From NCBI GenBank assembly GCA_963722605.1, contig CAVRNO010000003.1, positions 632,700 to 696,699 of the forward strand: 64,000 bases of DNA, read 5' to 3'. Position 1 is the first letter of the stretch. Every line of letters starts with the position of its first letter. The stretch comes from Candidatus Binataceae bacterium (GTDB lineage: Bacteria > Desulfobacterota > Binatia > Binatales > Binataceae). Under the pieces are notes generated by a model, which worked only from the letters and a program-made list of their open reading frames with translations, was not told where the DNA came from and made no database searches. The position numbers and the translations under genes were made by a program. Below are positions 14,883-45,166 of the stretch, in pieces.

Positions 14883-15049
14883 CGCTCGGCAGGATGCGCC
14901 TGAGATACGGCGTTTTCCTTTCGCTCGCGGCTTTGCCAGATTTGAAAGGAAATCCAGCAAGGAGCACGCGGACTGGATTGCGCGCGCGGCACTGTTCGGC
15001 GCGCGATCGATCCGATAAGATTTGCGCGCTGCCGCTAGAGACTTTACCG

Positions 15050-17425
15050 ATGAATGCCAACAAGGATCGCCTCGCTCTGATCGAGCATCTCTCCGCGATC
15101 GGCAGCGAACATTCCGAGGATCTCCGCGAGACCCTGGACCGGGTCGCGCTGGCGATCGCCACCGGCATGGAGGCGGAGGTGTGCTCGCTCTACCTCTTCG
15201 ATCCGCAGCGCGAGCGACTGGTGTTGCGCGCCACGGTGGGACTCGATCGCGAATCGGTCGGCAAGGTTTCGATGCGGCTGAACGAGGGGCTGGTCGGGCT
15301 GGTGCTGGAGAAAGATGAACCGGTTTGCGTGCCCGACGCGATGAGCCATCCGCGCTACAAGTACTTTCCCGAGACCGGCGAGGAGCGCTTCCATACTTTC
15401 CTGGGGGTGCCGGTCCGCGACGGCCGCAAGAAGCCGCTCGGAGTGCTGGTGGCGCAGACGCTCGAGCGGCGCAAATTCAACAAGAGCGAAATCCGCCTGC
15501 TCAATACCGCCGGCAACCAGGTCGCGCAAATTCTTTCTCATTTCAGGCTGCGCGAATCGCTGGCCACCAAGGAAAAAGAGCGGCTCGAATATCGCCGCCG
15601 GATGATCGAGGCCAACCGCCAGCTCAAGGATTACGAAAAAGTCGGCGGCAAGACGCGCCACGCGCCGCCGGCGAAGATTCGCCGTCCGCGGCTGGCAGGG
15701 CTTTCCGCGTCGCCCGGATTTGCGCAGGGAAACGCGCACGTGGTCGGCGCACTTCTAAGCAGCGTCGATCGCCACCAGAAGTCCCAAGACCCCAAGGCCG
15801 AGGTCAGGCGCTTCGAGGAGGCGCTCGCGCGTTCGCTGGCCGAGCTGGCGACGCTGCGGACGCGGATGGAGCCGCTGATGCCCGAGTCGGACCTGAAGAT
15901 CTTCGACGGCCATCGCATGATTCTCGAAGACGAGGAGTTCGTCGGCCGCATCCGCGACGCAATCGCCGACGGCTACACCGCCGAGAGCGCGCTGTTCCGG
16001 GTAATCGAGGAGCTGAGCGCCTCGATGCTGGCGGTCGCGGACAATTATTTGCGCGAGCGCGCGACCGACTTTCGCGACGTCGGCCATCGCCTGTTGCGTC
16101 ATCTGCGCCACGAGGAAAAGCGGGCGCCCTTCGCCAGGCCGACGATTATAATCGCCGAGGAGCTTACGCTCTCGCAGTTGATGCTGGCCAGCCACGACAA
16201 GCTGGCGGGTATCGCGCTGCAATCGGGCGGCGTCACCTCGCACGCGGCGATCCTGGCGCGGGCGTTTGAAATCCCGACCGTAGTCGGCGTCGAGCATCTG
16301 ATGGAATCCGTGATCGAGGGCGATCAACTCGTGCTCGACGGCAACTCGGGCGTGGTGTACGTCAATCCCCCCGCCGAGATCGAGCGCGACTACGTGAGCC
16401 TGTCCAAGCGCTACGAGGCTTTCAAGCGCGAGCTAATCGAGGAGGGCAACGCGCCGACCGCGACCCGCGACGGCCATCGCGTCATGCTGCTGGCGAATAT
16501 CGCGCTGCTGCCGGATATCCACCTGGCGTTGCGCTACGGCGCCGAGGGCGTCGGGCTGCTGCGTTCGGAATTTTCGTTCCTGACCTACGAGGATTTTCCC
16601 GACGAGACTCAGCAGCTCGCGCTGTACGCCAAGATGCTCGAGGCGCTGGGCAAGCGCCCGATCACGATTCGCACGCTCGATATCGGCGCCGACAAGTATC
16701 CGGGGTACATGCGGGTGCCGCGCGAGGAAAATCCGTTCCTCGGCTGGCGTTCGATACGGATCTCGCTCGAGATGCCGGGGCTGTTCAAAGTTCAGCTCCG
16801 CGCCATTCTGCGCGCCGCCGCCAAGCACAACGTCCGCATCATGTTCCCGATGATCTCGAGCCTGGAGGAATTGCGCCGCGCCAAGGAATTGCTGGCCGAG
16901 TCGCAGGCCGAGCTGTTCAAGGAAGGACTCGAGCACAATCCCAATATCGAAGTCGGGATCATGGTCGAAGTGCCGTCGGCGGTGTGGCTGGCGCCGCGGC
17001 TTGCGCGCGAGGTCGATTTTTTCTCGATCGGAACCAACGATCTGATCCAGTACCTGCTCGCCGCCGATCGCAACAATCGCAAGGTCGCGCACCTGTACGA
17101 GGCGCTGCATCCGGCGGTCATTTCCGCCATCGCCGAGGTCGTCAACGTCGCGCGCGCGGCCGACAAGGAAGTTTGCCTGTGCGGCGAGATGGCCAGCGAT
17201 CCGCTGGCATCGCTGCTGCTGGTCGGGATGGGGCTTGACGAACTAAGCCTGAGCCCGCTGTTCATTCCGGTGGTGCGCAAAGTCATTCGGGAGGTCGATT
17301 ATCAGACCGCCCGCCTGATCGCGCGTGAGACTTTACAAATGGCGAGCGTGCAGGAAATCAAGGGTTACCTGATCGAACGCTATCGCGACCTGGGCCTGAT
17401 CAATCTGGTCGAAATGTACCGCTAG
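15050..17425 (+). CDS. ptsP: Phosphoenolpyruvate-protein phosphotransferase with N-terminal GAF domain (EI-Ntr)
   Basis: GAF domain; phospho-His motif GGVTSHAAILAR; RTLDIGADK, ENPFLGWR, SIGTNDL, CGEMA. Confidence 0.95.
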   Translation: MNANKDRLALIEHLSAIGSEHSEDLRETLDRVALAIATGMEAEVCSLYLFDPQRERLVLRATVGLDRESVGKVSMRLNEGLVGLVLEKDEPVCVPDAMSHPRYKYFPETGEERFHTFLGVPVRDGRKKPLGVLVAQTLERRKFNKSEIRLLNTAGNQVAQILSHFRLRESLATKEKERLEYRRRMIEANRQLKDYEKVGGKTRHAPPAKIRRPRLAGLSASPGFAQGNAHVVGALLSSVDRHQKSQDPKAEVRRFEEALARSLAELATLRTRMEPLMPESDLKIFDGHRMILEDEEFVGRIRDAIADGYTAESALFRVIEELSASMLAVADNYLRERATDFRDVGHRLLRHLRHEEKRAPFARPTIIIAEELTLSQLMLASHDKLAGIALQSGGVTSHAAILARAFEIPTVVGVEHLMESVIEGDQLVLDGNSGVVYVNPPAEIERDYVSLSKRYEAFKRELIEEGNAPTATRDGHRVMLLANIALLPDIHLALRYGAEGVGLLRSEFSFLTYEDFPDETQQLALYAKMLEALGKRPITIRTLDIGADKYPGYMRVPREENPFLGWRSIRISLEMPGLFKVQLRAILRAAAKHNVRIMFPMISSLEELRRAKELLAESQAELFKEGLEHNPNIEVGIMVEVPSAVWLAPRLAREVDFFSIGTNDLIQYLLAADRNNRKVAHLYEALHPAVISAIAEVVNVARAADKEVCLCGEMASDPLASLLLVGMGLDELSLSPLFIPVVRKVIREVDYQTARLIARETLQMASVQEIKGYLIERYRDLGLINLVEMYR

Positions 17426-17493
17426 TAACGCTGGGCCGAATCGTCGCGATTGATTCCTCGACTTTGGCGCTGCTAAGGTGTTTGAATCGATTG

Positions 17494-17522
17494 TTGACAT
17501 AATCAGTCGGGAATTGTTTACT
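17494..17522 (+). promoter_or_regulatory. Putative sigma70 promoter of the radical SAM gene
   Basis: TTGACA (17494-17499), 17 bp spacer, TTTACT. Confidence 0.5.
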
Positions 17523-17526
17523 GTCT

Positions 17527-17542
17527 CTGACCGACCGGTTAG
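17527..17542. promoter_or_regulatory. Palindromic operator-like site 1 (CTGACCGACCGGTTAG)
   Basis: Near-perfect palindrome just downstream of the -10; 13/16 identical to the site at 25599. Confidence 0.65.
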
Positions 17543-17628
17543 ATACCGTCAGCCCCTGCGTTCGGGTATGATACGCAGGATGGGCAGGCTGGGGTAGGAA
17601 ACAAAGCAGAAGATCTGAGGATCTATCG

Positions 17629-19500
17629 ATGGTATTTCTTATATTTTTCGGCGCATTTCTGGTTTTCGCGGCGAGTATCCTCTACTGGCTGTTAGGGACG
17701 AATCGTTACGGCGGTGATCGTCCCGCCGCCAAGCTTCAGTTGACCGCACGCCAGGGTGCGATCGCCGAGGCGGCGATAAAGCCCGAGCCTTGCCGCACGA
17801 TTCGCGTCTATTTCATCAAACCCTCGCGGTACGACGAGGAGGGATTCGTCCAATACTTCCGCTACGGCGTTCAGCCCAACAACACTTTGACGGTGCTGAC
17901 GGCGCTCAACGAGGCGTTCAACAAGCGTTACGCGGTCGAGCGAAACGTCCGGCTCGAGACGGTAATTTGGGACGAAATCTGCGACGGGGTAGTCAGCCCC
18001 GAGACGATCAAGGCGATAAAGGAAAAGGCGCGCGAAGATGGCGTCGAGTTGCTGATCGGGCTGGCCGGGGTGCAATCGAATCAGTATCCGCGCGGGCGTG
18101 ACCTCGCGCTTCAGTTCGTCGCCGAAGGCCTGCCCACGATGATGGGCGGCTTCCATGTCAGCGGCTTTCCGGATTCGCGCAAGTTCCTGAACGAGTGCGG
18201 CGTCACGACCGTGATCGGCGAGGCGGAAAACATCTGGGGCTATATCGTCGAGGACTTCCTGCGCGGCGAGCTGCGCAAGAGTTATTCGGTGACGGAGGGA
18301 ATTCGCGCGAAGACCGGCCAGGACGACATCACGGTTCCGCTGATCACAGAGACACTGCTGCCGACGCTGGACGATCGTTACCTGACGCGATTTTTCAACG
18401 ATACGATGACCACGCTCGACACTTCGCGCGGATGCCCGTTCACCTGCTCGTATTGCAGCGTGAAAAACGTGATGGGCCGCACGATGCGCTCGCGCGAGCC
18501 CGACGCGGTGGTAAGCTGGGTGCGCGACGCATGCCGCAACCACGGGATCGAGTCGCTGTTCCTGGTGGACGACGATTTTTTCCGCTCGCCGCGATGGGAA
18601 GAAATTCTCACCGGCTTGATCGAGGTGAAGAAGGACTATCCCAAGCTTTCCTTCATGATGCAGGTGGACGTCGATGCGTCGTGCTACGCGAACGTCGCCG
18701 ACGGCGAGACCGAGACCGCCAAGCATCGGCGCAGCAAACGTTTCACCGAGCTGGCCGCAGCCGCGGGATGCTACCAGGCGTTCGTCGGAATCGAGTCGCT
18801 CAACCCCGACAACCTGAACTTTGCGACCAAGTACCAGAACACCGACAACCGCCAGAACAAGTGGTCGCTGGAAAAGGCGCGCGCGCACGTGATCGACAAG
18901 TATCGCCGCGTGGTCGAGAACTGGCACAAAGTCGGTGTGTCGGTGCATGCCGGCTACATGCTGGGATTCCCGTTCGACGGTCCCGATTGCGGGCGGGTGG
19001 CGGTGGCGACGCTGAAGAAGATCGGATTTGACCTGGTGTCGTTCTTTATCATGACTCCGCTGCCGGGCACTGAAGATCAGGCGCGCTTCACCCGGGAAGG
19101 CAAGATCACCGACTGGGACTTCAACCAGCTCGACTCGCAGCACGTCACGCTCAAGCACGACAGGATGGACAAGGAAAGCTGGCTCGGCGCGTACCGCGAC
19201 GCTTACAAGGGCTTCTATTCGATCCCGCGCCTGCTCTACAGCATTTTCACCATCTCCGCCGGGCGCGGACTCAGCGCGGAGGCGCGCTGCTCGACGCTGC
19301 GCCAGTTCACCTATTATTTCTTCAGCCATCGCCAGGGACGCCATCCGATGGTCGGCGGGGTATGGCCGATTCGCCGGCGCGACGTCCGCCGGATGGCAGT
19401 CAGCGACGACGAGGCGCGCCGCTGCTACCTGGGCGGGAAGCGCTTCGACGCGATTTTGCGCGGCGACGCCGGCGATGGATTCGCCGGGGCTCCGGCCTAA
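17629..19500 (+). CDS. Membrane-anchored B12-binding-like radical SAM protein of unknown function
   Basis: N-terminal TM helix; RGCPFTCSYC; VDDDFF, FVGIES, TPLPGT class-B-like motifs; N-terminus unlike HpnP, HpnR or HpnJ. Confidence 0.85.
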   Translation: MVFLIFFGAFLVFAASILYWLLGTNRYGGDRPAAKLQLTARQGAIAEAAIKPEPCRTIRVYFIKPSRYDEEGFVQYFRYGVQPNNTLTVLTALNEAFNKRYAVERNVRLETVIWDEICDGVVSPETIKAIKEKAREDGVELLIGLAGVQSNQYPRGRDLALQFVAEGLPTMMGGFHVSGFPDSRKFLNECGVTTVIGEAENIWGYIVEDFLRGELRKSYSVTEGIRAKTGQDDITVPLITETLLPTLDDRYLTRFFNDTMTTLDTSRGCPFTCSYCSVKNVMGRTMRSREPDAVVSWVRDACRNHGIESLFLVDDDFFRSPRWEEILTGLIEVKKDYPKLSFMMQVDVDASCYANVADGETETAKHRRSKRFTELAAAAGCYQAFVGIESLNPDNLNFATKYQNTDNRQNKWSLEKARAHVIDKYRRVVENWHKVGVSVHAGYMLGFPFDGPDCGRVAVATLKKIGFDLVSFFIMTPLPGTEDQARFTREGKITDWDFNQLDSQHVTLKHDRMDKESWLGAYRDAYKGFYSIPRLLYSIFTISAGRGLSAEARCSTLRQFTYYFFSHRQGRHPMVGGVWPIRRRDVRRMAVSDDEARRCYLGGKRFDAILRGDAGDGFAGAPA

Positions 19501-19684
19501 GCACCGCCAACTTTCATCACCTGACCGAACACCGGCGCGATTCACTCGCAATCGCGCCGGTGCGCACGGCGGTTCTCACCCGCGATATCGCGCCGAGGCT
19601 ATCCGCGCGCGGCTTGCACCCACGGCCGATAAAGGGCTAGGGATTCCCCGAGGATCCCATCATGGTCAGCCTGATCAACCTGCC
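19450..19684 (+). repeat. Direct repeat copy 1 (~235 bp)
   Basis: Matches 21110-21346 with scattered substitutions and indels; contains the rSAM 3' end, the intergenic region and the first codons (MVSLINLP) of the DUF1499 gene. Confidence 0.92.
19531..19561 (+). terminator. Stem-loop after the rSAM stop (ACCGGCGCGATT-N7-AATCGCGCCGGT)
   Basis: Perfect 12-bp stem; no U-tract, so terminator function is uncertain. Confidence 0.35.
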
Positions 19685-19699
19685 GACGGCCTCGGCGTG

Positions 19700-20284
19700 A
19701 CCGGCGCTGTACTATACTACCAACCAGATAAGGACTTGGACGAACAGCAGCTCTCCGGACGTAGCCCTCGATAACGCTTTGAAATCTGATCCCGTTCTCG
19801 GCATCGCCTACAAGTGGAACGGAGCGGGCCAGCTTAAGAGCACGGCAAGGCCAATCTGTTCGATTATGCAAGCGACAACGCCATCACGGGCAGCGACCTC
19901 AGCGGGATGGACGACTGTCCCGGCGGCGGCTACTCCGAGAACCAGGGTACTCTCTCCTACGCTCTGGGAGCCATCCTGCAGGTCATCTTCGATTTCTTGT
20001 TCGGCCAATCGACCGCGGCCGCCCCGGTATCGCAGGCCAATTATGCTGAGCAAGAACAGCTCGGGCACCAGCTAGGCGGCAGCTCCCAAATGATCGGCTT
20101 ACATGACGGTACGAACGTATACTCGCATGGCGGGGGCGCCGACCGGCTTGCAAACATCCTGTTTCGTGAAACCAGCGTGCTGTCAGGCGAGGAGGTTGAC
20201 ACGGCACGCATTGCCGTGGTCATGCCCTCATCAAGGGCAGCCGAACTCCCAATCCTCCAAAGCATGTCTCCGACGCGCGGCTGA
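19700..20284 (+). pseudogene. Degenerate RHS-repeat core tip plus variable C-terminal fragment
   Basis: LYY...SDPVLG in one frame, then from 19844 GKANLFDYASDNAITGSDLSGM, resembling the RHS 'NLY.Y..NNP...DP.G' signature, followed by an unrelated tail. Confidence 0.5.
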
Positions 20285-21109: not shown

Positions 21110-21346
21110 GCGATTTTGCGCGGCGACGCCGGCGATGGATTCGCCGGGGCTCCGGCCTAAGCGCCGCTAACTTTACACCATCTGACCGAAGACCGGCGCG
21201 ATTCACTCGCAATCGCGCCGGTGCGCATCGCGGCTCTCACCCGCGGCATCGCGCCGGAGGGCATCCGCGCGCGGCTTGCACCCACGGCCGATAAAGGGCT
21301 AGGGATTCCCCGAGGATTCCATCATGGTCAGCCTGATCAACCTGCC
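21110..21346 (+). repeat. Direct repeat copy 2 (~237 bp)
   Basis: Matches 19450-19684; this copy supplies the start of the DUF1499 gene. Confidence 0.92.
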
Positions 21347-22116
21347 CGTCATCATCGTCGCCGTGGCCCTCATGGCAGTACTGATCTTCTTCCCTGCGGT
21401 CTTCCGGCTGCTGGTCCGTCTCGCGACCTTTCTCATACCTGTGGCGGTCGCCGCGGCGGGTATCGCGATGATCATGAACGACGAGACGATTTTCGAAAGA
21501 CCCGGTCCGGGGCAACGCGTGGTCCGGTTCGTCACGATGAACTCCGCGGCCGCCAGCCCGTCGGGCGCCGGCTCGATGACTTGCCAGATGGAGAATCAGC
21601 CGCAGGCGGCGCCGGCGCCGAGCGAGGCGCTGGAACGCAGGCGCGCCGCAAGGAAGGCGTTTACCAAAGAACCCGGGCCGGCGCACAGGCTGGAACCGTT
21701 CGCGACGCCGGCGTCGCTCGACGACGTCTATCCTGAATTGATTCGCCGCGAATATCCGGGAATCCCGCGCGAGAAACTGTTTCAACTCTCGCAAGAAACG
21801 ATCAACTCGCTCGGTGGATGGACAATCGTCAAGGCCGATCCCAACACCTTCACGATCAATTGCATCTACACCACGCGAATCTTCAAATTCGAGGACGACG
21901 TGAGGATCACGGTGCAGCCGTCAGGCGAGCTTGACGTGTGCTCGCGCTCCGGCATGGCGCGCCCCGATGCGAGCCTCGATGCTGCGCTACTTCCCCGGCG
22001 ATCTCGGCGCCAATATCGGGCATATCAAGCAGTTTTACGAAGCGCTCGAGCCGAAGATGGATGAGGTCTATAAGGAAGAGCAAGAGAAGCAGAACGCCAA
22101 GAAGCCGCCGCACTGA
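21324..22116 (+). CDS. DUF1499-like membrane protein, frameshifted near 21975
   Basis: Two N-terminal TMs; TTRIFKFEDDVRI...DVCSRS then, in the +1 frame, GDLGANIGHI. Confidence 0.75.
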
Positions 22117-22608: not shown

Positions 22609-22761
22609 CCGGCTGTTGAAAAAGTAATTTTCAACGCCTGCTCCCTCTCTCTTGTCTCCCCCAAAGGGGGAGATGTTATAGGTAAGAAGACAGCTTTTAC
22701 GCAGGGTGTTGAAGAGCTTGAAATCGAAATTGACGATTGATCCCAGTTTTTCAACACCCTG
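22609..22761. mobile_element. MITE-like element A with IS5/IS1182-like ends
   Basis: TIRs CCGGCTGTTGAAAAA / CAGGGTGTTGAAAAA (13/15), flanked by CTAG at 22605 and 22762. Confidence 0.7.
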
Positions 22762-22765
22762 CTAG

Positions 22766-23187
22766 TGTCGTGTCGCGTAAATAGATTGAAGAACAAAGCC
22801 CTAACCCCCTGGCCCCTTCCCCAGAAAGAATGGGGAAGGGGAGCAGAAAAATCCTCCGGGAATGCTGCCGTCCTATCCCCCTGGCCCCCTTTCCGGGCCG
22901 GAAAGGGGGGACCGGATCAAAGCCGGAAAGTCGGGGAGATACTTGCCGAGCACCCTTTCCCGGGCCGGAAAGGGGGGACCGGATCAAAGCCGGAAAGTCG
23001 GGGAAGTACTTGCCGAGGACCCTTTTCCGGGCCGGAAAGGGGGGAACCGGACCAAAGCCGGAAAGTCGGGGAGATACTTGCCGAGCACCCTTTCCGGGCC
23101 GGAAAGGGGGGACAGGACCAGAGAGTCCCTTGGCTGGTCGTACCAGAATCAACCAGAACTTTTTGAAGATATTTGCAGGACACTACA
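22766..23187. mobile_element. MITE-like element B containing a hairpin tandem array
   Basis: TIRs TGTCGTGTCGCGTAAATA / TGTAGTGTCCTGCAAATA, flanked by CTAG at 22762 and 23188. Confidence 0.65.
22886..23113. repeat. ~67-bp tandem repeat x3.4 with CCCTTTCC-GGGCC-GGAAAGGG hairpin (REP/BIME-like)
   Basis: Units start near 22886, 22953, 23020 and 23088; the linkers are near-identical. Confidence 0.9.
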
Positions 23188-23217
23188 CTAGAAGGCGCGC
23201 TCGCGGAGTAAATCTTC

Positions 23218-23499
23218 ATGAAGCTGACCGAAGCACGAGTATTGTTCCTGGCGCGCGAGTCGATCGCAAAATTGCGCGACGAGGGCCTGGCCGAGATCGC
23301 AAACTTTCCGCTCGCGCTGCGCCAGGCGCGCGAAATCGTGGCGCAGTTCAACGAGCAGGGTGACGAGATCGACGCGATCGTGAGGCGCAAGATCAATTCG
23401 ATCAAACGCGGCGTCGTCGAGGGTTCCAACGAATGGACGATCCTCTACAAGCGCTACCGCGACGAAGAGCTGCGCAAGAAAGGCCCCCGGCAGGGCTGA
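23218..23499 (+). CDS. DUF507-family protein (copy B)
   Basis: MKLTEARVLFLA...EIDAIVRRKINSIKRGVVEGSNEWTILYKRYRDEE. Confidence 0.8.
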   Translation: MKLTEARVLFLARESIAKLRDEGLAEIANFPLALRQAREIVAQFNEQGDEIDAIVRRKINSIKRGVVEGSNEWTILYKRYRDEELRKKGPRQG

Positions 23500-25486: not shown

Positions 25487-25565
25487 AATCAAATAGTTAG
25501 GGCGAAATATCTCACTGGGAACATTTTGGCCCGAACTGATCGCCTGACCGATCGGACTGTCTCTC

Positions 25566-25593
25566 TTGACATTCGGAAGTGTGACGGTAAAGT
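25566..25593 (+). promoter_or_regulatory. Putative sigma70 promoter of the TetR-hpn operon
   Basis: TTGACA, 16 bp spacer, TAAAGT. Confidence 0.55.
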
Positions 25594-25598
25594 TACCA

Positions 25599-25614
25599 TT
25601 GACCGAAAGGTTAG
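25599..25614. promoter_or_regulatory. Palindromic operator-like site 2 (TTGACCGAAAGGTTAG); weaker copy CTGACCGATCGGACTG at 25544-25559
   Basis: Immediately downstream of the -10 and upstream of the TetR gene; shares the motif at 17527 and 52720. Confidence 0.65.
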
Positions 25615-25639: not shown

Positions 25640-26305
25640 ATGGGCGAAGCGCAGGCCAAACAATCAGGCTCATCCGAGCCGCGCGTACAATCGCAGGATT
25701 CGCGGGACGAGATTCTGAAGGCGGCGATGGAGCTATTTGCCAATCGCGGCTTCCACGAGACGTCGATGTCGGAAGTGGCGCGCGAGGCGCGGGTCAGCAA
25801 GGCGCTGATTTTCTGGCATTTCAAGACCAAGGAAGAGCTGTTCGTGGCGGTGCTGAACCGGCTGCTGGAGCCGTACTTTATCGATTTTGCCGAAGAGGCG
25901 TCGATGGACGAGCGGGTGCAGATCGAGAAGCTGGTGGAGGCTTACCTGCGGTTCGTGCGTGACAACGCGAGCTCGGTGCGTTTTTTCCTGGCGCAGATGC
26001 TCCACGACCAGGGGCTGTCCGAGAGTCTCAACGACCAGGTGCTCAAGCTGTATAGCGGATATCGCGCGATGCTGGTGGAACTGATCGCGCGCGCGCAGCA
26101 AAAGGGCATCTGCACGCGGCGGACGGCGCCCGAATCGGCGGCGGCGTTTCTGCTGTCGGCGCTGAACGGATTGCTGATCGAATACCTGTTCATGGGGCCG
26201 AACGCGGTCGATCCGGAAGGAGCAGTGGCGATGGTCGGCGAGTGGCTGTTCGGGGAACCATCGGGGTCATCTTCGTCGGAGGCTGGCGGCGCGCCGGCCG
26301 CCTGA
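25640..26305 (+). CDS. TetR/AcrR-family transcriptional regulator heading the hopanoid operon
   Basis: ILKAAMELFANRGFHETSMSEVAREARVSKALIFWHFKTKEEL HTH. Confidence 0.93.
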   Translation: MGEAQAKQSGSSEPRVQSQDSRDEILKAAMELFANRGFHETSMSEVAREARVSKALIFWHFKTKEELFVAVLNRLLEPYFIDFAEEASMDERVQIEKLVEAYLRFVRDNASSVRFFLAQMLHDQGLSESLNDQVLKLYSGYRAMLVELIARAQQKGICTRRTAPESAAAFLLSALNGLLIEYLFMGPNAVDPEGAVAMVGEWLFGEPSGSSSSEAGGAPAA

Positions 26306-26352: not shown

Positions 26353-27357
26353 ATGCGCCTTCCACCGAGACAAATGATCGATCTGGCCCGCTACATCCGC
26401 GCGAAGAAGCGCTCGGGCGAGAAGTATTTTCCGCTGGTGCTGATGCTCGAGCCGCTGCATGCGTGCAACCTTGCGTGCATCGGATGCGGGCGAATCGTCG
26501 AGTACAAGGACACGATCCGCGACATGATGCCGCTGGACGAGGCGCTGCATTCGGCCGAGGAAGCGGGCGCGCCGCTGGTGTCGATCTGCGGCGGCGAGCC
26601 GCTGATGTACAAGTATATCGTGGCGCTGACGCGGGGGTTGATCGAGGATCAGAGGCGTCACGTCATGATCTGCACCAACGCGGTGCTGCTGGAGCGATTC
26701 GTCAAGCAGGTGGCGCCGAGCCCGTACCTGAGCTTCAACCTGCATCTGGACGGGATGCGCGAGACCAACGATCGCGTGACCGACCGGCAGGGGCATTTCG
26801 ACACCGTGGTGAAGATGATCAAGATGCTGAAGGAGAAGGGCTACCGGGTACAGACCAACACGACGGTGTTCCGCGAGACCACCAGCGACGAACTCGAACG
26901 GATGATCAAGTACCTGACGACCCTCGAGGTCGACGGGATGCTGCTGAGCCCCGGCTATCACTACCAGGTGATGGGCAACGACGACGAGTATCTGAAGAAA
27001 GAGGAGATGCCGGCCAAGTTTTTCAAAGTCCGCGACATGGCCGACGACTACAAGATCGTCAATACGCCGATATACCTGGACTACCTGGTGGGCAAACGCG
27101 AGCTGCAGTGCAGTCCGTGGACGACGGTGACGCGCAATCCGCGAGGATGGAAGGGGCCCTGCTACCTGATAACCAACGGCCACTACAAGACGTTCGAGGA
27201 AATGCACGCGGCGACGGACTGGGAGTACTACCGGACCAAGCAGGATTTCCGCTGCCGCGACTGCAAGCTGCATTCGGGATTCGAGGGCACGGTGGCGCTC
27301 GATTTCGGCAAGAATCTCAAAGACTCGTGGCGGATGGTGCGCCATTACGTGGCGTGA
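26353..27357 (+). CDS. hpnH: Adenosyl-hopene transferase HpnH (radical SAM)
   Basis: FPLVLMLEPLHACNLACIGCG, GGEPL, C-terminal CRDCKLHSGFE. Confidence 0.92.
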   Translation: MRLPPRQMIDLARYIRAKKRSGEKYFPLVLMLEPLHACNLACIGCGRIVEYKDTIRDMMPLDEALHSAEEAGAPLVSICGGEPLMYKYIVALTRGLIEDQRRHVMICTNAVLLERFVKQVAPSPYLSFNLHLDGMRETNDRVTDRQGHFDTVVKMIKMLKEKGYRVQTNTTVFRETTSDELERMIKYLTTLEVDGMLLSPGYHYQVMGNDDEYLKKEEMPAKFFKVRDMADDYKIVNTPIYLDYLVGKRELQCSPWTTVTRNPRGWKGPCYLITNGHYKTFEEMHAATDWEYYRTKQDFRCRDCKLHSGFEGTVALDFGKNLKDSWRMVRHYVA

Positions 27358-27532
27358 GGGAGCGTCTGCGCTTTCGACGCGGAGAGCGCTCGCGCGCGAC
27401 TGACCAATCAACCTAGCCAAGCGGAAGAGGAACGATCGCGTGAGGAAAAATCCCGATCAGTTTTTCAGCTCTTCAGCGCCGCGGCCGAGCCCAAGGTCAG
27501 CGCCGCCGGCGGCGGGACAAGAGCAACGAGAG

Positions 27533-28423
27533 ATGTTCGACTTGCACAGCTATTTGAAGGAGCGGGCGCAGATTATCGAGCGGGCGCTCGCTCAATGCGT
27601 CGAGCAGCCGGCGGGCGCGGCGGCGCGCCTGCATGAGGCGATGCGCTACTCGCTGCTGGCAGGCGGCAAGCGGCTGCGGCCGGTGCTGGTGCTGGCGTCG
27701 TGCGAGGCGGTCGGCGGGAAAGCCGGGGCGGCGATGGGACTGGCGTGCGCGGTCGAGATGATTCACACCTACTCGCTGATTCACGACGACCTGCCGTGCA
27801 TGGACGACGACGATCTGCGCCGCGGGCGCCCCACCAATCACAAGGTCTATGGCGAAGCGATCGCGACGCTGGCGGGCGACGCGCTGCTGACGGACGCATT
27901 CAAGGTGCTCGCGCGCTCGGCGGACAACAGCGCGCCGGCGGCGCTGGTGCTGGAAACGATCGCGGAGCTTGCCGACGCGGCGGGATCGGGCGGGATGGTT
28001 GCGGGGCAGGTGATCGATCTGCTCGGCGAGGGCAAGTCGAAGACGATCGAGGAGCTCGAAGAACTGCACGGCAAGAAAACCGGGGCGCTGTTCATAGCGT
28101 CGGTTCGCGGCGGCGCGCGCCTGGGCGGCGCGAGCGGGGCGCAAATCGAATCGCTCGACGCATACGCGCGCGCGCTCGGGCTGGCGTTCCAGGTCGTCGA
28201 TGACCTGCTGGACGTTCAAGGCACGGCCGAGCAGATGGGCAAACGCACGCAAAAGGACGTGGAGCGCGGCAAGGCGACCTATCCCGCGATATTGGGAATC
28301 GAGCGCTCGCTCGACCTGGCGCGCGAGCTCGAATCGCGAGCGCATCGCGCAATCGCCGGTTTCGGGCATCGCGCCGACGCGCTGCGGCACATCGCAACCT
28401 TCGTCGTGGAGCGCAAGCTGTGA
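27533..28423 (+). CDS. ispA: Farnesyl/geranylgeranyl diphosphate synthase
   Basis: GGKRLRP, HDDLPCMDDDDLRRGRPT, FQVVDDLLD; alternative GTG start at 27440. Confidence 0.92.
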   Translation: MFDLHSYLKERAQIIERALAQCVEQPAGAAARLHEAMRYSLLAGGKRLRPVLVLASCEAVGGKAGAAMGLACAVEMIHTYSLIHDDLPCMDDDDLRRGRPTNHKVYGEAIATLAGDALLTDAFKVLARSADNSAPAALVLETIAELADAAGSGGMVAGQVIDLLGEGKSKTIEELEELHGKKTGALFIASVRGGARLGGASGAQIESLDAYARALGLAFQVVDDLLDVQGTAEQMGKRTQKDVERGKATYPAILGIERSLDLARELESRAHRAIAGFGHRADALRHIATFVVERKL

Positions 28424-29487
28424 ACGCGGCCGAAGCGTCGGTAGAAATCGCGGGGACGCATTCGCGCCAGGCCGTGCTGGTGGAGCCCGGGCGGCTCGAA
28501 TTGCGCGACTACGTCGTGCCGCATCCGGGGCCGGGCGAATTGCTGATTCAAATCCGCTGCGCGCTGAGTTGCGGCACCGATCTGAAAATGTTTCTGCGCG
28601 GGCATCCGCTATGGACGCTGCCGATTGCCTTCGGGCACGAGTTTTCCGGGGTGGTGGTGGAAGCAGGCGAGGGCGTGACCGCCTTCAAGCCCGGCGACGA
28701 AATAATGGCGGCGCCGACCGCGCCGTGTGGAATCTGTTTTTACTGCCAGCATGGGCAGGAGAATCTTTGCGACGATGCGGTCGGGCGGATGGTGCTCGGC
28801 GCGTACGCGGACATGCTGCTGCTGCCGGCGCACGTCGTCGCGCGCAATACGTTTATCAAACCGGCGTACCTGCCGTTCGAAGAAGCCGCGCTGCTCGAGC
28901 CGCTTTCGTGCGTGGTTCATGCCCAGGAAATGGCGCGTCCCGAAAAGACCGAGACGGTGGCGATCATCGGCGGCGGCGCGTTCACCCTGCTGCACATGAT
29001 GGTGCTGAAGGCTGCGGGCGTGCGCGAGGTGGTGGTCGTGGGGCGAGACGCCCGGCGGCTTAAGTGGGCGCAGGAGAGGGGCGCGGACCGGGTGATCGAC
29101 GCGCGCAGCCCCGACGCGAGCGCTGAAATCGCACGGCTCAACGGCGGCTTCGGCCCCGACCTGGTGATCGAGTGCACGGGGCAGGTCGAGGGATGGCAGG
29201 ATGCGGTGGCGCGGGTGCGGCGCGGAGGGCGGGTAGTATTTTTCGGCGGATGTCCGGCGGGCACGGCGCTCAGGGTCGATACGCGACTGATGCATTACGA
29301 CAATCTGACGTTGATGTCTCCGTTTCATTTTCGGCCGCGCGATGTGCGGCGCGCTTACGAATTGCTGGCGGGGCGCACGCTGAACGCGGGCTCGATCGTC
29401 AACGCGCGAATGCGGCTTGGCGATTTGAGGGAAGTGTTCGCGATGCTCGAGCGAGGCGTGGTTCTGAAATGCGCCGTGATTCCATAG
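28420..29487 (+). CDS. Zinc-dependent (MDR) alcohol dehydrogenase
   Basis: CGTD, GHEFSG, CGICFYC..GQENLC; GTGA overlap with ispA. Confidence 0.9.
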   Translation: MNAAEASVEIAGTHSRQAVLVEPGRLELRDYVVPHPGPGELLIQIRCALSCGTDLKMFLRGHPLWTLPIAFGHEFSGVVVEAGEGVTAFKPGDEIMAAPTAPCGICFYCQHGQENLCDDAVGRMVLGAYADMLLLPAHVVARNTFIKPAYLPFEEAALLEPLSCVVHAQEMARPEKTETVAIIGGGAFTLLHMMVLKAAGVREVVVVGRDARRLKWAQERGADRVIDARSPDASAEIARLNGGFGPDLVIECTGQVEGWQDAVARVRRGGRVVFFGGCPAGTALRVDTRLMHYDNLTLMSPFHFRPRDVRRAYELLAGRTLNAGSIVNARMRLGDLREVFAMLERGVVLKCAVIP

Positions 29488-29553
29488 TGGAATGCGGCGA
29501 GGTTGCGGCGGGTTCCCGCGGGATGCGGACTTCGGTTCAAGCAAGGGTGAATT

Positions 29554-31512
29554 ATGAGTCAGGCCATTGAAATTGGAAGCACGGCGATCGCCATGTCGCC
29601 GCATGACGAGTTCGTCGCGAAGATTGATTACACGGTAGCTCGCGCGCAGCGCGCGCTTATCGCGCTGCAGAAGCCCGAGGGCTACTGGCACGCGCCGCTG
29701 GAGGCGAACGCCGAGATGAACGCGGAGTTCATCATCTTCAGCCATTTTATGGACACGGTCGATCTCGAGGTCGAAGCGCCGCTCAAGAAGCATCTGCTGG
29801 AGACTCAGAGTCCGGACGGGAGCTGGGCGCTTTACCAGGGCGCCGAAGGGCATCTGTCGACGACGATCGAAAGTTATTTCGCGCTGAAGCTCACCGGCAT
29901 GCGCGCGGGTGACGAGCCGATGGCGGCGGCGCGGCGCTGGATCCTGTCCAAGGGCGGGATCGTGAACTGCGGGACGCTGGCGCGCTTCTATCTGGCGGCG
30001 ATGGGGCAGATAACCTGGGAGGCGACGGCTGCGCTGCCGGTGGAACTCTCGCTCTTCCCGAACTGGTTCCCGTTCAACATTTACGAGCTCGGTTCATGGG
30101 CGCGCGGAACGCTGATGGGACTGATGATGCTGCAGGCGGCGCGTCCCGAGAAAAAGATCGATTACCAGCGCGGAGTGCTGGAGCTGTTCATCCAGCCGCC
30201 GCATTTCACCAAGTTCAAACAGCCGCGCGGAAAAAAGTTCCTGTCTCTGCGCAACGCGCTGAACCTCGCCGACCAGGCGCTGCGCTTCTACGATCGGCAC
30301 AAAATCAAATCGCTCCGCGCGCGCGCGCTGCGCGTCACGGAAAACTGGCTGGTCGAGCATCAGGATGCCAACGGCTCGTGGGGCGGAATCGAGCCGTGCT
30401 ACCTGCTGAGCGCGATGGCTCTGAAAGCCAACGGCTACCGCAACGACCATCCGGTGCTGAAGAAAGCGATCGAGGCGTCGCAGGAACTGATTTGGCACTT
30501 CAAAGACTACGACATGTACATGCCGTGCGTGTCGGTCAACTGGGACACGGCGCTCGCGGCTCGGGCGCTGCTGGATTCGGGATTGCCGGGCGACCATCCG
30601 GCGCTGAAGCAGACCTCGCAATGGTTTATCGATCATCAGATTTTCAAGAAGGGCGATTGGTCGGTAAAGCGGCCCGAGCTCGAGCCGGGCGGATGGGCGT
30701 TTCAGTTCTACAACGACTGGTATCCCGACGTGGACGATTCGGCGGTAATTCTGTCGGTGATGGCGGATTCGGCGGCTGATGACGCCGCGGGCAGGGAGCG
30801 CGCGATCCGCGTTGGCGCCAACTGGGTGATGGGAATGCAGTCGAAAGACGGCGGCTTCGCGGCGTTCGACGTTGACAACGATTCAACCTGGCTCAATCAT
30901 TTGCCGCTCGCGGACGTGGAAGCGGTGACGGATCCGTCGTGTCCCGATCTCACCGGAAGGGTGCTCGAGATGATGGGGTCGGTCGGCTATCGCACCGAGC
31001 ATCCGGTGGCGAAGCGCGCGATCGAATGGCTCAAGCGAAATCAGTCGCCGGCGGGCGGATGGTGGGGACGCTGGGGCATCAACTATATCTACGGCACTTT
31101 CTCGGCGCTGTCGGGCTTGCGCGCGATCGGCGTCGATATCAACGAGCCGTGGATCAAGCGGGCGGTCGAGTGGCTCAAGTCCAAGCAGAATCCCGACGGC
31201 GGCTGGGGCGAGAGCCCGCTGTCGGACAAGGATCCCGCGTGGCACGGGCGCGGAACCAGCACGGCGTCGCAGACAGCGTGGGCGCTGATCGGATTGATCG
31301 CGGGCGAGGCGGGAATCAGCGAGCACGCGGTGCGCGGCGCGCAGTGGCTCTCAGAGCGGCAGAACGATGAGGGCGCGTGGGACGAGAGCGAATCGACCGG
31401 CAACGGATTCCCGAATCATTTTTATCTTCGCTACCACATGTACGCGCATTACTTTCCGCTGATGGCGCTTGGGCGGCTGCGCCGGCGGCTGGTGGAGACG
31501 GCGCCGCATTGA
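29554..31512 (+). CDS. shc: Squalene-hopene cyclase
   Basis: YPDVDDSA catalytic motif; QW repeats (QSPDGSW, QDANGSW, QNPDGGW, QNDEGAW). Confidence 0.97.
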   Translation: MSQAIEIGSTAIAMSPHDEFVAKIDYTVARAQRALIALQKPEGYWHAPLEANAEMNAEFIIFSHFMDTVDLEVEAPLKKHLLETQSPDGSWALYQGAEGHLSTTIESYFALKLTGMRAGDEPMAAARRWILSKGGIVNCGTLARFYLAAMGQITWEATAALPVELSLFPNWFPFNIYELGSWARGTLMGLMMLQAARPEKKIDYQRGVLELFIQPPHFTKFKQPRGKKFLSLRNALNLADQALRFYDRHKIKSLRARALRVTENWLVEHQDANGSWGGIEPCYLLSAMALKANGYRNDHPVLKKAIEASQELIWHFKDYDMYMPCVSVNWDTALAARALLDSGLPGDHPALKQTSQWFIDHQIFKKGDWSVKRPELEPGGWAFQFYNDWYPDVDDSAVILSVMADSAADDAAGRERAIRVGANWVMGMQSKDGGFAAFDVDNDSTWLNHLPLADVEAVTDPSCPDLTGRVLEMMGSVGYRTEHPVAKRAIEWLKRNQSPAGGWWGRWGINYIYGTFSALSGLRAIGVDINEPWIKRAVEWLKSKQNPDGGWGESPLSDKDPAWHGRGTSTASQTAWALIGLIAGEAGISEHAVRGAQWLSERQNDEGAWDESESTGNGFPNHFYLRYHMYAHYFPLMALGRLRRRLVETAPH

Positions 31513-31522
31513 GCGCGTCGCG

Positions 31523-32694
31523 ATGAAGGCGATTTCAATTCTGGGCTCGACCGGCTCGGTCGGCGTCACCACGCTGGACGTGGCCGGGCGATTCAGCGAC
31601 CGATTCCGCGTGGTCGCGATGGCGGCGGGACGCAACCTGGATCTGCTGACGGAGCAGGTGAAGCGCTTTCATCCCGAACTGGTCTCGGTGGCGACGCCCG
31701 AACTCGCGCGCGAACTGGCGGCGCGCGTCGGTGCGCAGCGCGTGACGATCGTGCACGGACTCGAAGGCGCGATCGCCGTCGCAACCCATCCCGCGGCGAA
31801 GCTGGTGATGTCGGCGCTGGTCGGCGCGATGGGCTTGCAGCCGACGCTGGCGGCGATCAAGGCCGGCAAGGACATCGCGTTTGCCAACAAGGAAGTGCTG
31901 GTCGTTGCCGGCGCGTTGATCACCGCGGCGGCGCAGCGAGAATCGGCGTGCGGCTGCTGCCGGTGGACAGCGAGCACAACGCGGTTTTTCAATGCCTGGA
32001 AGGACGCGGGCGCGAGTCGTTGAAGCGGATCATTTTGACCGCGTCGGGCGGGCCGTTTCGCGAGCGGGCGGCCGACAGTTTCGAATCGATCACAGTCGAA
32101 CAGGCGCTGAAGCATCCGACCTGGCGCATGGGCAGCAAGGTTACGATCGATTCGGCGACGCTGATGAACAAGGGGCTCGAGGTGATCGAGGCGCGGTGGC
32201 TGTTCGATCTCAAGCCCGCCCAGGTCTCGGTGGTGATTCATCCGCAGAGCGTGATTCATTCGATGGTCGAAATGATCGATGGCTCGGTGATCGCGGAGAT
32301 GGCGATTCCCGACATGGCAATTCCGGTGGCGTACGCGCTCGGCTATCCGGAGCGGCTGCCGATGACGCATCTGAAGCCGCTGTCACTGGCGGAAAATTCG
32401 CGCTTGACGTTTGAAGAACCCGACCTCGGGCGCTTCCCCTGTCTGCGGCTGGCGTACGAGGCGCTGGCTGCCGGGCACACGATGCCGGCGTGCCTCAACG
32501 CCGCCAACGAGGAACTGGTGGCGGGCTTTCTGGCGGGGCGCGTGCGTTTCATCGACATCCCGCGCCATATCGAAACCGTGATGCAACGGCATCACAACTC
32601 GGCGGCGCAAACGATCGAAGATCTGCTGGAGACGGATGGATGGGCGCGAGCCGCGGTGCGCGAACTTATCGGAGCGCGGCCGGTAGCGGCCTGA
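31523..32694 (+). CDS. dxr: 1-deoxy-D-xylulose-5-phosphate reductoisomerase, frameshifted near 31940
   Basis: ILGSTGSVG and ANKE in the first frame; LPVDSEH, TASGGPFR, HPTWRMG.KVTIDSATLMNKGLE, NAANE in the second. Confidence 0.95.
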
Positions 32695-32698
32695 GACG

Positions 32699-33625
32699 AT
32701 GGCACTCGTGGGGGCCAACGTGCAGAGCGAAGGAACCTCGTACGTAGCGAGCGCGGCGCGGGACGCGTCGCCGCCGCCAGGAGCGTTCGACGTGGCGGGC
32801 GCGTACCAGTTCTGCGCTCGGCTGGCAAAATCGCACTACGAAAATTTCACGGTCGCATCGTGGCTGATGCCGCGCGAGATGCGGCCGCATATGTACGCAA
32901 TTTACGCGTACGCGCGGATGGCGGACGACTTTGCCGACGAGCATCACGACCTGGCAATGCTCGACGAATGGGAGCGCGAGCTCGACCTGGCGTACGCCGG
33001 CGCTCCGCGCCATCCGGTATTCGTCGCGCTCGCCGACACGGTGCGCCGCTTCGATATTCCGCGCGAGCCGTTCAAAGATCTTTTGACTGCGTTTCGATCC
33101 GACGTGGACTTCAAGGGCTTCGACACGCTCGACGATCTGCTCGGCTATTCGCGCTACTCGGCGAATCCGGTGGGACGGCTGGTGCTTTACCTGTTCGGCT
33201 ACCGCGACGCCGAACGGCAGCGGCTGTCGGACCTGGTCTGCAGTGGATTGCAGCTCGCCAACTTCTGGCAGGACGTTGCAGTCGATCTCGGCAAGGGACG
33301 GATCTATCTTCCGCGCCGCGACATGGAACGATTCGGGGTCACGCCGGCGGACCTGGCCGCGCACACCTCGTCGCGCGAGTTCGTGGAGTTGATGCGTCAT
33401 GAGGCGGGGGTCGCGCGAGCGATGCTGGTTGAGGGGGGAGAATTGCACAAGCTCGTGGACAAGCGGCTGCGGCGCGACATCGTGATGTTCGCGGGCGGCG
33501 GGCTGGCGATTATCCGCGCGATCGATCGCGTCAACTACGACGTATTCCGGATGCGTCCGGAACTGACGAAGCTCGACTACCTGAAACTCGGATGGAGCGC
33601 GCTGCGTGGACGGCTTGAAGCCTGA
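32699..33625 (+). CDS. hpnC: Hydroxysqualene synthase HpnC
   Basis: SHYENFTVAS, ADDFADE, SANPVGRLVL, LQLANFWQD. Confidence 0.92.
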   Translation: MALVGANVQSEGTSYVASAARDASPPPGAFDVAGAYQFCARLAKSHYENFTVASWLMPREMRPHMYAIYAYARMADDFADEHHDLAMLDEWERELDLAYAGAPRHPVFVALADTVRRFDIPREPFKDLLTAFRSDVDFKGFDTLDDLLGYSRYSANPVGRLVLYLFGYRDAERQRLSDLVCSGLQLANFWQDVAVDLGKGRIYLPRRDMERFGVTPADLAAHTSSREFVELMRHEAGVARAMLVEGGELHKLVDKRLRRDIVMFAGGGLAIIRAIDRVNYDVFRMRPELTKLDYLKLGWSALRGRLEA

Positions 33626-34529: not shown

Positions 34530-34563
34530 GGGGGATGCGCGCGGCGAATTAGATGGCATCGGC

Positions 34564-35918: not shown

Positions 35919-35925
35919 CTATTGA

Positions 35926-36939: not shown

Positions 36940-36947
36940 GCCACGCC

Positions 36948-37874: not shown

Positions 37875-37956
37875 TCGCGACGCGCTTCCAAATCTTCGGC
37901 GAGTGTGGCAAGCGTCGGGCTTCCAGCTGCGACGCGGTAACCAGAGGTGACTTGGC

Positions 37957-39511: not shown

Positions 39512-39654
39512 TCGCGTGGTCTCATTTTGGACATTACGTGCGCGCGCTTGAGCGAACCATCCGATGCTAGCAAAATTGTGCCGGTGTTTTTCACTCTTTC
39601 AATGGCCCGGCAGAGCCGTTATCCGTCATCCGTGGCGACTCGCGGTGGAGCAGT

Positions 39655-40515: not shown

Positions 40516-40585
40516 TTCAACTTTGCATCCGGCGTTCGCTGTAACTCGTGCCAAAGCATAACTTCCCCGGCGGGAGACCAGCGCC

Positions 40586-44929: not shown

Positions 44930-45166
44930 GAACCAAATATAGCGCACCCCTCGATGATAGTCAAGGGGTGCATAATCGCCTATGCAAAGCTCTCCTGAAG
45001 GCAAACTTAAGCCAGCGCCCGCGACCCGCCGCCGCATCGATTGCTCGCGCCCCGGCGCGGTTTGAATTAGGCTACGGGTCTGCGGGGCGCGCCCCCCGCG
45101 CGATTTTTTCCACGCTCGATTACATACAGTGAAAAAGTGAAAAAGTGAAAAAGGAAGAGGGACCAG

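Follow-up and report, generated by a model that had tools for sequence, protein, structure and literature searches.

The 64,000-nt stretch of DNA analysed here (the window) belongs to a Candidatus Binataceae bacterium (assembly GCA_963722605.1, contig CAVRNO010000003.1, positions 632,700 to 696,699 of the forward strand) and carries, from position 17629, a gene for a 623-residue radical S-adenosylmethionine (SAM) protein, hereafter the candidate. The candidate founds a new subfamily of class-B-type radical SAM enzymes that is specific to Binatia and, for the most part, anchored in the membrane, and its co-regulation with hopanoid genes in Binataceae is real. A hopanoid is the single most likely substrate, at a little under an even chance, because the operator is shared with hpnJ-hpnI and the core hopanoid cluster, the protein has a membrane anchor and its fold is of the class-B type. 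Somewhat more tentatively, we propose that the hopanoid regulon of Binataceae, under the TetR-family regulator of the hopanoid cluster, has recruited an anchored class-B-type radical SAM enzyme for a modification of hopanoids to which no enzyme has been assigned. The modification might consist in an additional methylation at carbon, or in the methylation or deoxygenation of the aminosugar or cyclitol head group that HpnI/K/J make. The gene, its predicted promoter and the parts of the protein are placed as follows.

17494-17499, + strand: predicted -35-like hexamer TTGACA, seen as GTTGAC across ten aligned upstream regions
17517-17522, + strand: predicted -10-like hexamer TTTACT, 17 nt past the -35 element, within the conserved island ttnGTTTAC
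17527-17542, no strand: TetR-type palindromic operator CTGACCGACCGGTTAG, directly 3' of the -10 element, 22.8 bits against the position weight matrix described below
17629-19500, + strand: coding sequence of the 623-residue class-B-type radical SAM protein, ATG start, stop codon included
17629-17697, + strand: N-terminal transmembrane helix, residues 1-23 (hydropathy, and a helix at 2-23 in the structural model)
17794-18378, + strand: N-terminal domain of Rossmann type that resembles a cobalamin domain, residues 56-250 approximately (from the modelled secondary structure and Foldseek)
18433-18456, + strand: CxxxCxxC radical SAM motif CPFTCSYC, residues 269-276 (C269, C273, C276)

The reading frame, the Pfam match and the hydropathy profile agree on a CxxxCxxC radical SAM protein with an N-terminal transmembrane anchor, as the original prediction had described it from the sequence alone; the peptide then quoted as the N-terminus, IKPSRYDEEGFVQYFRYGVQPNNTL, is present at residues 63-87. 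The GC content at third codon positions (0.81) is typical of the genes of the window. PF04055 is the only Pfam match (42.3 bits against a cut-off of 29.5), and this score above gathering, together with the CxxxCxxC motif, places the candidate in the radical SAM superfamily. The three cysteines of the motif are the sole invariant ones in a family alignment of 67 sequences; an auxiliary Fe-S cluster is therefore not expected and was rejected. Strongly hydrophobic 19-mers occur only at residues 1-25, plus one at 457. The helix is followed by a basic linker (residues 24-55) of low confidence in the model, with a predicted local distance difference test score (pLDDT) below 50 at residues 23-49. Since basic residues follow the helix, the positive-inside rule suggests that the catalytic domain faces the cytoplasm (C-in topology). 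A cleavable signal peptide in place of the anchor was rejected on general grounds, as there is no basic n-region and radical SAM chemistry needs the cytoplasm. A hydrophobic N-terminus is also present in the orthologues of genomes G348, G324, G289, G380, G174, G307, G340, G272, G308 and G381, and the helix is kept in the orthologues of two Binatia families.

The AlphaFold2 model built from the 67-sequence alignment (mean pLDDT 89.6, predicted template-modelling score 0.87) comprises the helix, a Rossmann-type beta/alpha domain, a radical SAM barrel and a helical C-terminal part; poor definition is limited to the linker (residues 23-49) and the 20 C-terminal residues. The N-terminal domain contains the conserved blocks GVQSNQYPRG and GGFHVSG. 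When compared with the PDB by Foldseek, the model matches AprD4 best (6e-20), then TsrM (1e-16) and CysS, OxsB, MgmA and TokK (down to 1e-14), with MiaB and RimO ranking next after the cobalamin-type structures. All of the top 15 matches share the architecture of a Rossmann cobalamin-type domain joined to a radical SAM barrel, and the alignments to cobalamin-type radical SAM structures span 485-637 columns. A sequence search of the PDB gave core-motif matches only to TokK (2e-5) and 9ccb_A (8.9e-4), the latter deposited as 'Radical SAM core domain-containing protein'. The class-B-like character first read from motifs is thus borne out at the level of the modelled fold and architecture, with cobalamin as a putative cofactor.

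The candidate is distinct from the known hopanoid radical SAM enzymes, in agreement with what had been predicted for HpnR and HpnJ. It shares with HpnR (TIGR04367) and HpnP a radical SAM core and an N-terminal cobalamin-type domain, it has the same operator as HpnR in this genus, and it is encoded in a hopanoid producer. However, it scores only 37.1 bits against the HpnR model (cut-off 650), over the core motif region only; it is 120-130 residues longer than HpnR and HpnP, with a transmembrane helix and a distinct C-terminal region; PF02310 and PF13282 were undetected; and it lies very far from the HpnR of the window in the tree (outgroup branch 4.6). The combination of PF02310, PF04055 and PF13282 that marks HpnP is absent from the candidate, where PF04055 alone was found, although, according to the accessible part of a recent preprint (10.1101/2025.07.29.667474), about one in three true HpnP proteins escapes this triple. 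No HpnP model appears among the NCBIfam matches of the candidate at E ≤ 0.1. These matches comprise 25 families, nearly all of B12-type radical SAM proteins and none near its cut-off, among them a ladderane-type lipid enzyme model (53.1 bits, cut-off 360). The best of them is HpnJ (TIGR03471, proposed to carry out the ring contraction to the bacteriohopanetetrol cyclitol ether), the operator of which, common with the candidate, is kept across three genera; but this match is confined to the radical SAM core (58.7 bits against a cut-off of 577.6), and a true HpnJ (717 bits) is encoded at another place in the genome. AprD4 (PDB 6fd2), a radical SAM 1,2-diol dehydratase whose substrate is the aminoglycoside paromamine, has the same two-domain layout and is the best structural match, with a template-modelling score of 0.70 normalised to the target; it is nevertheless a soluble protein of 453 residues with 16-17% identity to the candidate. 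The cobalamin-dependent methylases TsrM, CysS, TokK and MgmA, as well as OxsB, match the fold over about 500-630 columns, but at 12-16% identity, with no common family model and with unrelated substrates. Methylation is the commonest chemistry of class B radical SAM enzymes.

The evidence for co-regulation comes from the operator. Position 17494, at which the original prediction began, is the first base of the TTGACA hexamer, and the palindrome that follows the promoter has one mismatch to the consensus CTGACCGAYCGGTCAG, the sites at 25544, 52720 and 25247 having two. Its half-sites agree by inspection at 6 of 7 positions, which makes it the most palindromic copy in the window, as had been claimed. 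The window contains nine strand-matches with at most three mismatches against 1.61 expected, a count reached in none of 100 shuffles; the genome has nine sites with at most two mismatches, four of them in this window, which represents 1.7% of the genome. A position weight matrix of CTGACCGnnCGGTyAG sites, built from four sites of the genome and two orthologous ones, finds 29 matches at ≥12 bits, 11 at ≥15 and 5 at ≥19 in the whole genome (G000; 3.73 Mb, 4 contigs, 96% complete). The five strongest stand upstream of the candidate, of the TetR gene heading the hpnH-shc cluster, of hpnR, of metK (185 bp upstream, G000:C3:405427-405442) and of hpnJ-hpnI. The hpnJ site, CTAACCAAGCGGACAG, was outside the training set and lies directly after TGTATAGT, about 22 nt before the hpnJ ATG. 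The claim that the operator is shared with the hpn operon and hpnR is confirmed, and can be extended to hpnJ-hpnI and to a footprint across genera. The sites of the window and the genes attached to them are listed below.

25544-25559, no strand: operator A, CTGACCGATCGGACTG, before the TetR gene, with an equivalent in 5/5 relatives
25599-25614, no strand: operator B, TTGACCGAAAGGTTAG, 11.1 bits (C3:658298), with an equivalent in 5/5 relatives (10.5-15.6 bits)
25640-26305, + strand: gene of a TetR-family regulator, the one that precedes hpnH, probably starting at the ATG at 25640 (TetR-type NCBIfam matches)
52720-52735, no strand: hpnR operator, CTGGCCGATTGGTCAG, 62 nt 5' of the ATG start codon
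52797-54311, + strand: hpnR, hopanoid C-3 methylase, a class B radical SAM enzyme (TIGR04367, 855.1 bits against 650)

A further 35 sites score 11-18 bits, most of them inside genes, and these are not claimed as members of the regulon because chance matches are expected at such scores. The intergenic ones precede another TetR gene, a 548-residue protein without Pfam match (30 bp upstream), ispH/LytB (21 bp upstream), a class-V aminotransferase and a type II secretion system-type ATPase; the weak sites C4:802721, C2:1100050, C2:1659473 and C3:207054 (11.5-15.8 bits) may be outer members of the regulon or chance. An 18.9-bit site inside a resistance-nodulation-division (RND) gene was considered as the site of a hopanoid transporter and rejected, HpnN being absent from the genome. 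Same-strand genes of the nitrogen-related phosphotransferase system (PTS-Ntr) type end shortly before two of the five strong operators: ptsP in the case of the candidate, and an HPr-like gene (C3:405503-405862, minus strand) in that of metK. No Rfam family reaches its gathering score in the window, the leader giving only a chance-level viral pseudoknot (E 0.66), and therefore no SAM or cobalamin riboswitch of known families is present.

The operator is conserved well beyond this genome. The candidate carries at its promoter the conserved 16-bp CTGACCGnnCGGTyAG-type palindrome by which the hopanoid regulon is defined here, and an operator precedes the orthologue in 9 of 10 Binataceae-type genomes, the window included (the others being L015, L017, G348, G324, G289 with CTAACCGGTCGGTTAG, G380, G174 and G307). 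In the ten aligned upstream regions, the -35 hexamer, the -10-like element, the operator and the ribosome-binding site form conserved islands in divergent DNA, and the position of the operator after the -35/-10 pair is fixed in those nine. Five of the operator-bearing orthologues are unlinked to the shc cluster (distant or on another contig). The hpnJ operator is found at -45 to -47 in 5/5 other Binataceae genomes from three genera (15.3-22.8 bits). The hpnR operator is present only in two same-genus genomes of the four with hpnR, at -98/-99 from the HpnR match, and is absent in G289 and G174; the metK operator occurs only in the same two genomes, of five. Operators A and B bracket a TTGACA (25566-25571) and a TAAAGT (25588-25593), a layout retained in 5/5 relatives. 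The TetR protein encoded there has an orthologue, 60-93% identical, in 5/5 Binataceae genomes, in each case some 4 kb upstream of shc, and the second TetR of the window (54927) has none at E ≤ 1e-30 in the five. Because the cluster TetR and its two sites are kept throughout and the second TetR is not, we assign the operator to the cluster TetR, which probably binds it and is likely autoregulated. The second TetR gene (54927-55604) stands after hpnR and is followed by a convergent SAM-dependent methyltransferase gene (55591-56163, minus strand).

Contigs from four metatranscriptome runs (three studies; soil, peat and wetland) match this locus at 90-99% identity and cover 11 to 26 of 30 depth bins, depending on the run, with none on 17300-17453. 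They are compatible with transcription in soils and peat, although such contigs show no start, strand or level and DNA carry-over is possible.

The description of the candidate as an orphan does not hold, since it belongs to a large, though unnamed, family with 155 representatives at E ≤ 1e-30 among 1.84 billion searched. Many members align over about residues 55-590 of the candidate at 30-58% identity, and those auto-named 'B12-binding domain-containing radical SAM proteins' do so at 30-40%. The blocks IKPSxYDDDGY, VGVQTNQFPRA, GGFHVSG, GEAE, SRGCPFxCSFC, TDDNFARN and HPMxxG are common to the family and the candidate. All of the 25 distant members scanned stay below the NCBIfam cut-offs, and the ESM Atlas offers automatic 'B12-binding radical SAM' names only, with PF02310 in 31-90% of the members of related clusters. 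Among the best 120 of 1826 matches, relatives at 76-90% identity are Candidatus Binatus or Binataceae wherever named. Named carriers of the wider family include Rhodopseudomonas palustris, Labrenzia, Paraburkholderia, Mycoplana dimorpha and Reyranella, and further carriers are found in Acidobacteriota, Chromatiaceae, Sumerlaeota and Nitrospirota. The transmembrane helix is present in 4 of 30 aligned members, all Binatia-type. Clustering of 2945 flanking open reading frames from 56 family loci revealed no neighbour common to more than six loci, the most-shared ones being a generic ABC ATPase and a short-chain dehydrogenase/reductase (SDR). The Pfam-annotated neighbours in eight loci are unrelated (TRAP transporter, SDR, LysR, PBP, FtsEX, RecQ and others), and synteny therefore gave no functional lead.

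The phylogeny (62 rows, rooted on HpnR and HpnJ; a quick IQ-TREE search under LG+G4, with support from the SH-like approximate likelihood ratio test, SH-aLRT, only) places the candidate in a fully supported subfamily of 17 rows with a long stem (0.7). The rows of known origin are all from Binatia, five others (P0122, P0124, P0125, P0132, L015) being without stated kinship. In contrast to the candidate, the other family members form separate clades (SH-aLRT 95-100), are mostly without a transmembrane helix, lack the operator and conserved neighbours, and occur in shc-negative genomes. This genome itself encodes a second copy (G000:C4:482489-484342) with 34% identity to the candidate and no operator, which falls in a different clade (support 95) with proteins of R. 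palustris, Labrenzia, Mycoplana, Oceaniserpentilla and Paraburkholderia. The candidate, in its own long-stemmed clade, is therefore a diverged paralogue rather than the standard form of the family.

Co-occurrence with hopanoid genes was evaluated in a class-level sample of 151 genomes, which replaced a phylum-level sample of 201 (only one same-family and four same-class genomes). The Binataceae counts include an unpublished genome, G332, and are each one lower without it.

Orthologues at ≥70% identity with transmembrane helix (16/17 other Binataceae and this genome), 17 genomes: hpnJ 17, shc 17, hpnR 14
Orthologues at 58-60% identity (families f4 and f5), 6 genomes: hpnJ 6, shc 5, hpnR 2
Relatives at 47-48% identity without transmembrane helix, G295, 1 genome: hpnJ 0, shc 0, hpnR 0
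Relatives at 47-48% identity without transmembrane helix, G281, 1 genome: hpnJ 0, shc 1, hpnR 0
Whole class-level sample (background), 151 genomes: hpnJ 87, shc 101, hpnR 37

The carriers of an orthologue at ≥58% identity thus hold hpnJ in 23/23 and shc in 22/23 of the genomes sampled. The only one without shc, G317 (92% complete), has hpnJ and hpnR. This phyletic pattern is compatible with a hopanoid role; what tells the readings apart is the regulatory evidence.

We propose that the candidate would be a radical SAM enzyme facing the cytoplasm and tethered to the inner membrane by its single N-terminal helix. It would be transcribed from its own promoter, the start region of which the 16-bp palindrome would cover, and the cluster TetR would repress it together with its own gene and the hpn cluster, hpnJ-hpnI and, in this genus, hpnR and metK. 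At the membrane, the enzyme may use SAM-dependent radical chemistry to modify a hopanoid. The reaction could be a methylation at carbon or some other functionalisation of a C-H bond, and its target might be the extended side chain or the aminosugar or cyclitol head group. Tailoring of the head group or side chain is attractive but speculative; its appeal comes from hpnJ-hpnI, the core partner in the regulon, and from the nearest fold, AprD4, acting on an aminoglycoside.

Several observations weigh against this proposal. Concerning the chemistry, the B12-binding profile PF02310 was undetected in the candidate by Pfam at E ≤ 0.1, and AprD4, the closest fold, is a dehydratase that is not known to use cobalamin; methylation is therefore not implied. 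Concerning the genomic context, the conserved neighbour of the gene across families f1, f4 and f5 is ptsP and not an hpn gene, and the candidate lies 8-11 kb from shc only in this genome and in three others of the genus, the distance being 460 kb in G348 and the two genes standing on separate contigs in G324, G174, G289 and G380. As regards the regulon, the orthologue of G340 (Binataceae) has no site at ≥12 bits, nor have those of families f4 and f5 at 58-60% identity (0/6 loci). Four of these f4/f5 orthologues, inspected by eye, have no palindrome of the TTGACCGnnCGGTCAA type upstream, while hpnJ carries a perfect palindrome, TTGACCGnnCGGTCAA, in 4/4 f5 genomes. The operator system is therefore old, and the candidate joined it in the Binataceae lineage. 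The regulon could, moreover, concern SAM rather than hopanoids, because all of its members use or make SAM. The co-occurrence with hpnJ is not discriminating, since families f1 (17/17 genomes hpnJ-positive), f4 (18/18) and f5 (15/17) are hpnJ-positive almost throughout. G388, a Binataceae genome that is 96% complete, lacks the candidate gene despite having shc, hpnJ and hpnR. Conversely, G295 (100% complete) has neither shc nor hpnJ but two of the copies at 47-48% identity that lack the helix. Finally, in a family-wide check of 50 genomes, drawn from 50 of the 56 family loci, shc was matched at E ≤ 1e-30 in 33 (30 over the cut-off) and in none of the other 17; two strains of Labrenzia, Mycoplana and Oceaniserpentilla, all of them isolates, are among these.

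The original prediction had named homologues common in shc-negative genomes as a result that would count against it, and the outcome differs between groups. Such homologues exist in the paralogous subfamilies, where all 17 shc-negative carriers hold only members at 29-37% identity, and in G295 with its copies devoid of the helix. The 13 of these members that are in the tree all fall outside the subfamily of the candidate, and the orthologues themselves keep shc with the one exception mentioned. Similarly, of the predicted hopanoid or lipid tailoring, an anchored class-B-type enzyme and its co-regulation are retained, whereas the substrate, the use of cobalamin and methylation can be proposed only conditionally.

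The alternative that survives best, although we consider it unlikely, is that the candidate acts on a different lipid or isoprenoid of the membrane, for instance a carotenoid, a quinone or the acyl chain of a phospholipid, and is co-repressed with hopanoid genes through a common remodelling of the envelope. The transmembrane anchor points to a membrane substrate of any kind, the occurrence of the wider family in shc-negative genomes argues that the ancestral substrate was not a hopanoid, and the orthologues outside Binataceae do not belong to the operator regulon. The hpn cluster itself contains a CruF-like carotenoid gene and SDRs. Radical SAM enzymes acting on non-hopanoid lipids are also established, namely Tes, Mss, Gms, Grs and Gmm in the available portion of a review (PMC13459092). 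However, all the high-scoring operators except that of metK precede a hopanoid gene, and there is no strong site at a gene of another lipid pathway, only an 11.6-bit site before ispH. The long and fully supported branch that divides the subfamily of the candidate from the shc-independent paralogues likewise counts against this alternative.

Slightly less probable still is a non-lipid substrate, such as a protein, an RNA or a soluble metabolite, with the operator defining a regulon for the economy of SAM and radical SAM enzymes and the TetR sensing SAM, S-adenosylhomocysteine (SAH) or a related signal. The targets of the strong sites are indeed all SAM users (the candidate, HpnH behind tetR, HpnJ and HpnR) or the SAM synthetase gene metK, and SAH-responsive regulators of the TetR family exist, such as McbR of Corynebacterium. 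The gene is also solitary, without conserved partner in the 56 loci, as are many housekeeping modification enzymes, and it is syntenic with ptsP. Nevertheless, the metK and hpnR sites are limited to one genus, whereas those of the candidate and hpnJ span three genera; no other site at ≥11 bits precedes an identified radical SAM gene, the paralogue on C4 being siteless; and the regulator heads the hopanoid cluster in 5/5 relatives. A conserved transmembrane anchor would, in addition, be unusual for a radical SAM enzyme modifying RNA or protein. It is very improbable that the operator is regulatory noise or serves the neighbouring gene (for instance by blocking read-through from ptsP), the protein acting outside the regulon: two operators do lie just downstream of PTS-Ntr genes (ptsP and the HPr-like gene) and the f4/f5 orthologues work without a site, but the site is one of the best-conserved stretches of an intergenic region that has otherwise diverged, its position is fixed after the promoter in 9/10 genomes, and only about five sites of this strength exist per 3.7 Mb.

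If a hopanoid is the substrate, the candidate would be the fifth radical SAM enzyme of hopanoid biosynthesis and its gene would mark a soil lineage that is abundant and uncultured; to our knowledge, Binataceae has no cultured members. Hopanoids and their methylated forms serve as molecular fossils, and several structural variants have no assigned enzyme. In the accessible part of a 2026 review of lipid-modifying radical SAM enzymes (PMC13459092), those of hopanoids are HpnH, HpnJ, HpnP and HpnR only, and hopanoid structures are said to show variation that further radical reactions would be needed to explain. Synteny has uncovered hpnL, hpnM, hpnS and hpnT, none of them a radical SAM gene in the portion available of 'Origin and transport of bacterial hopanoids' (10.1101/2025.07.29.667474), a text in which, to the same extent, 'TetR' and 'Binat' are absent. 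A full-text literature search, at the level of titles, returned nothing on the family of the candidate or on a TetR operator of hopanoid genes. As far as the literature searched shows, an operator-defined, TetR-controlled hopanoid regulon thus appears to be undescribed, and it would allow further hopanoid-linked genes to be sought through membership of the regulon instead of synteny. The candidate is a clonable gene with a defined promoter, an operator and a putative repressor. Should the substrate not be a hopanoid, the analysis still brings out a large uncharacterised radical SAM family.

The candidate is preceded in the window by genes for a cyclophilin, a PHP-family hydrolase and ptsP (14894-17425). 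The remaining hopanoid genes of the window form a cluster at 26353-41104 (+ strand unless stated, start positions given).

26353: hpnH
27440: farnesyl diphosphate synthase
28420: zinc-dependent alcohol dehydrogenase
29554: shc
31948: dxr, part
32699: hpnC
33606: hpnD
34553: hpnE, part
35926: hpnA
36948: CruF-like
37957: SDR
about 38801-39394, minus strand: hpnG-like
39655: hpnK
40586: acetyltransferase

HpnH (373 bits), SHC (702), HpnC (319), HpnD (320), HpnA (459) and HpnK (254) score over their cut-offs, and the HpnG-like gene is below its own (108.5 bits against 187.1). The hpnE gene (34553-35918) is apparently split: a 315-residue frame matches only positions 2-224 of the 430-position HpnE profile, and a second frame at 35259-35918 overlaps it in another phase, which may reflect a frameshift or an assembly error. 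In the interval 31669-32694, the dxr frame (31948-32694, 248 residues) matches Dxr positions 144-386 only, the N-terminal half lying outside this called frame. The acetyltransferase directly after hpnK, at the end of the cluster (40586-41104), is of the ArsN1/phosphinothricin N-acetyltransferase type (139.8 bits, below the cut-off of 210). Between the cluster and hpnR stands an IS1595-family transposase (44000-45643, minus strand, 202.5 bits against 75), in the part of the window with the lowest GC content (0.57-0.59).

Two repeats were observed downstream of the candidate. The frames at 19475-19774 and 21221-21736 encode a near-identical peptide stretch (…RARLAPTADKGLGIPRG.HHGQPDQP…), which points to a DNA repeat flanking the gene at 20.5-21.0 kb, and a tandem repeat at 22887-23117 (67-bp unit, 3.5 copies, 91% matches) yields overlapping repetitive frames at 22751-23429. 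Elsewhere in the genome, the true hpnJ is followed by hpnI (329.5 bits against 310) on another contig, and the stretch directly upstream of hpnJ (C2:1687783-1689614; L131:4784-6612) encodes a CpaM corrinoid-protein-associated methyltransferase (283 bits against 180) and an HgcAB-like fusion protein (445.7 bits against 285). Another B12-type radical SAM gene of 508 residues (C3:10958-11932; L008:1252-2778, minus strand) reaches 150.9 bits to HpnJ, below the cut-off, and further unassigned B12-type radical SAM genes are located on C2.

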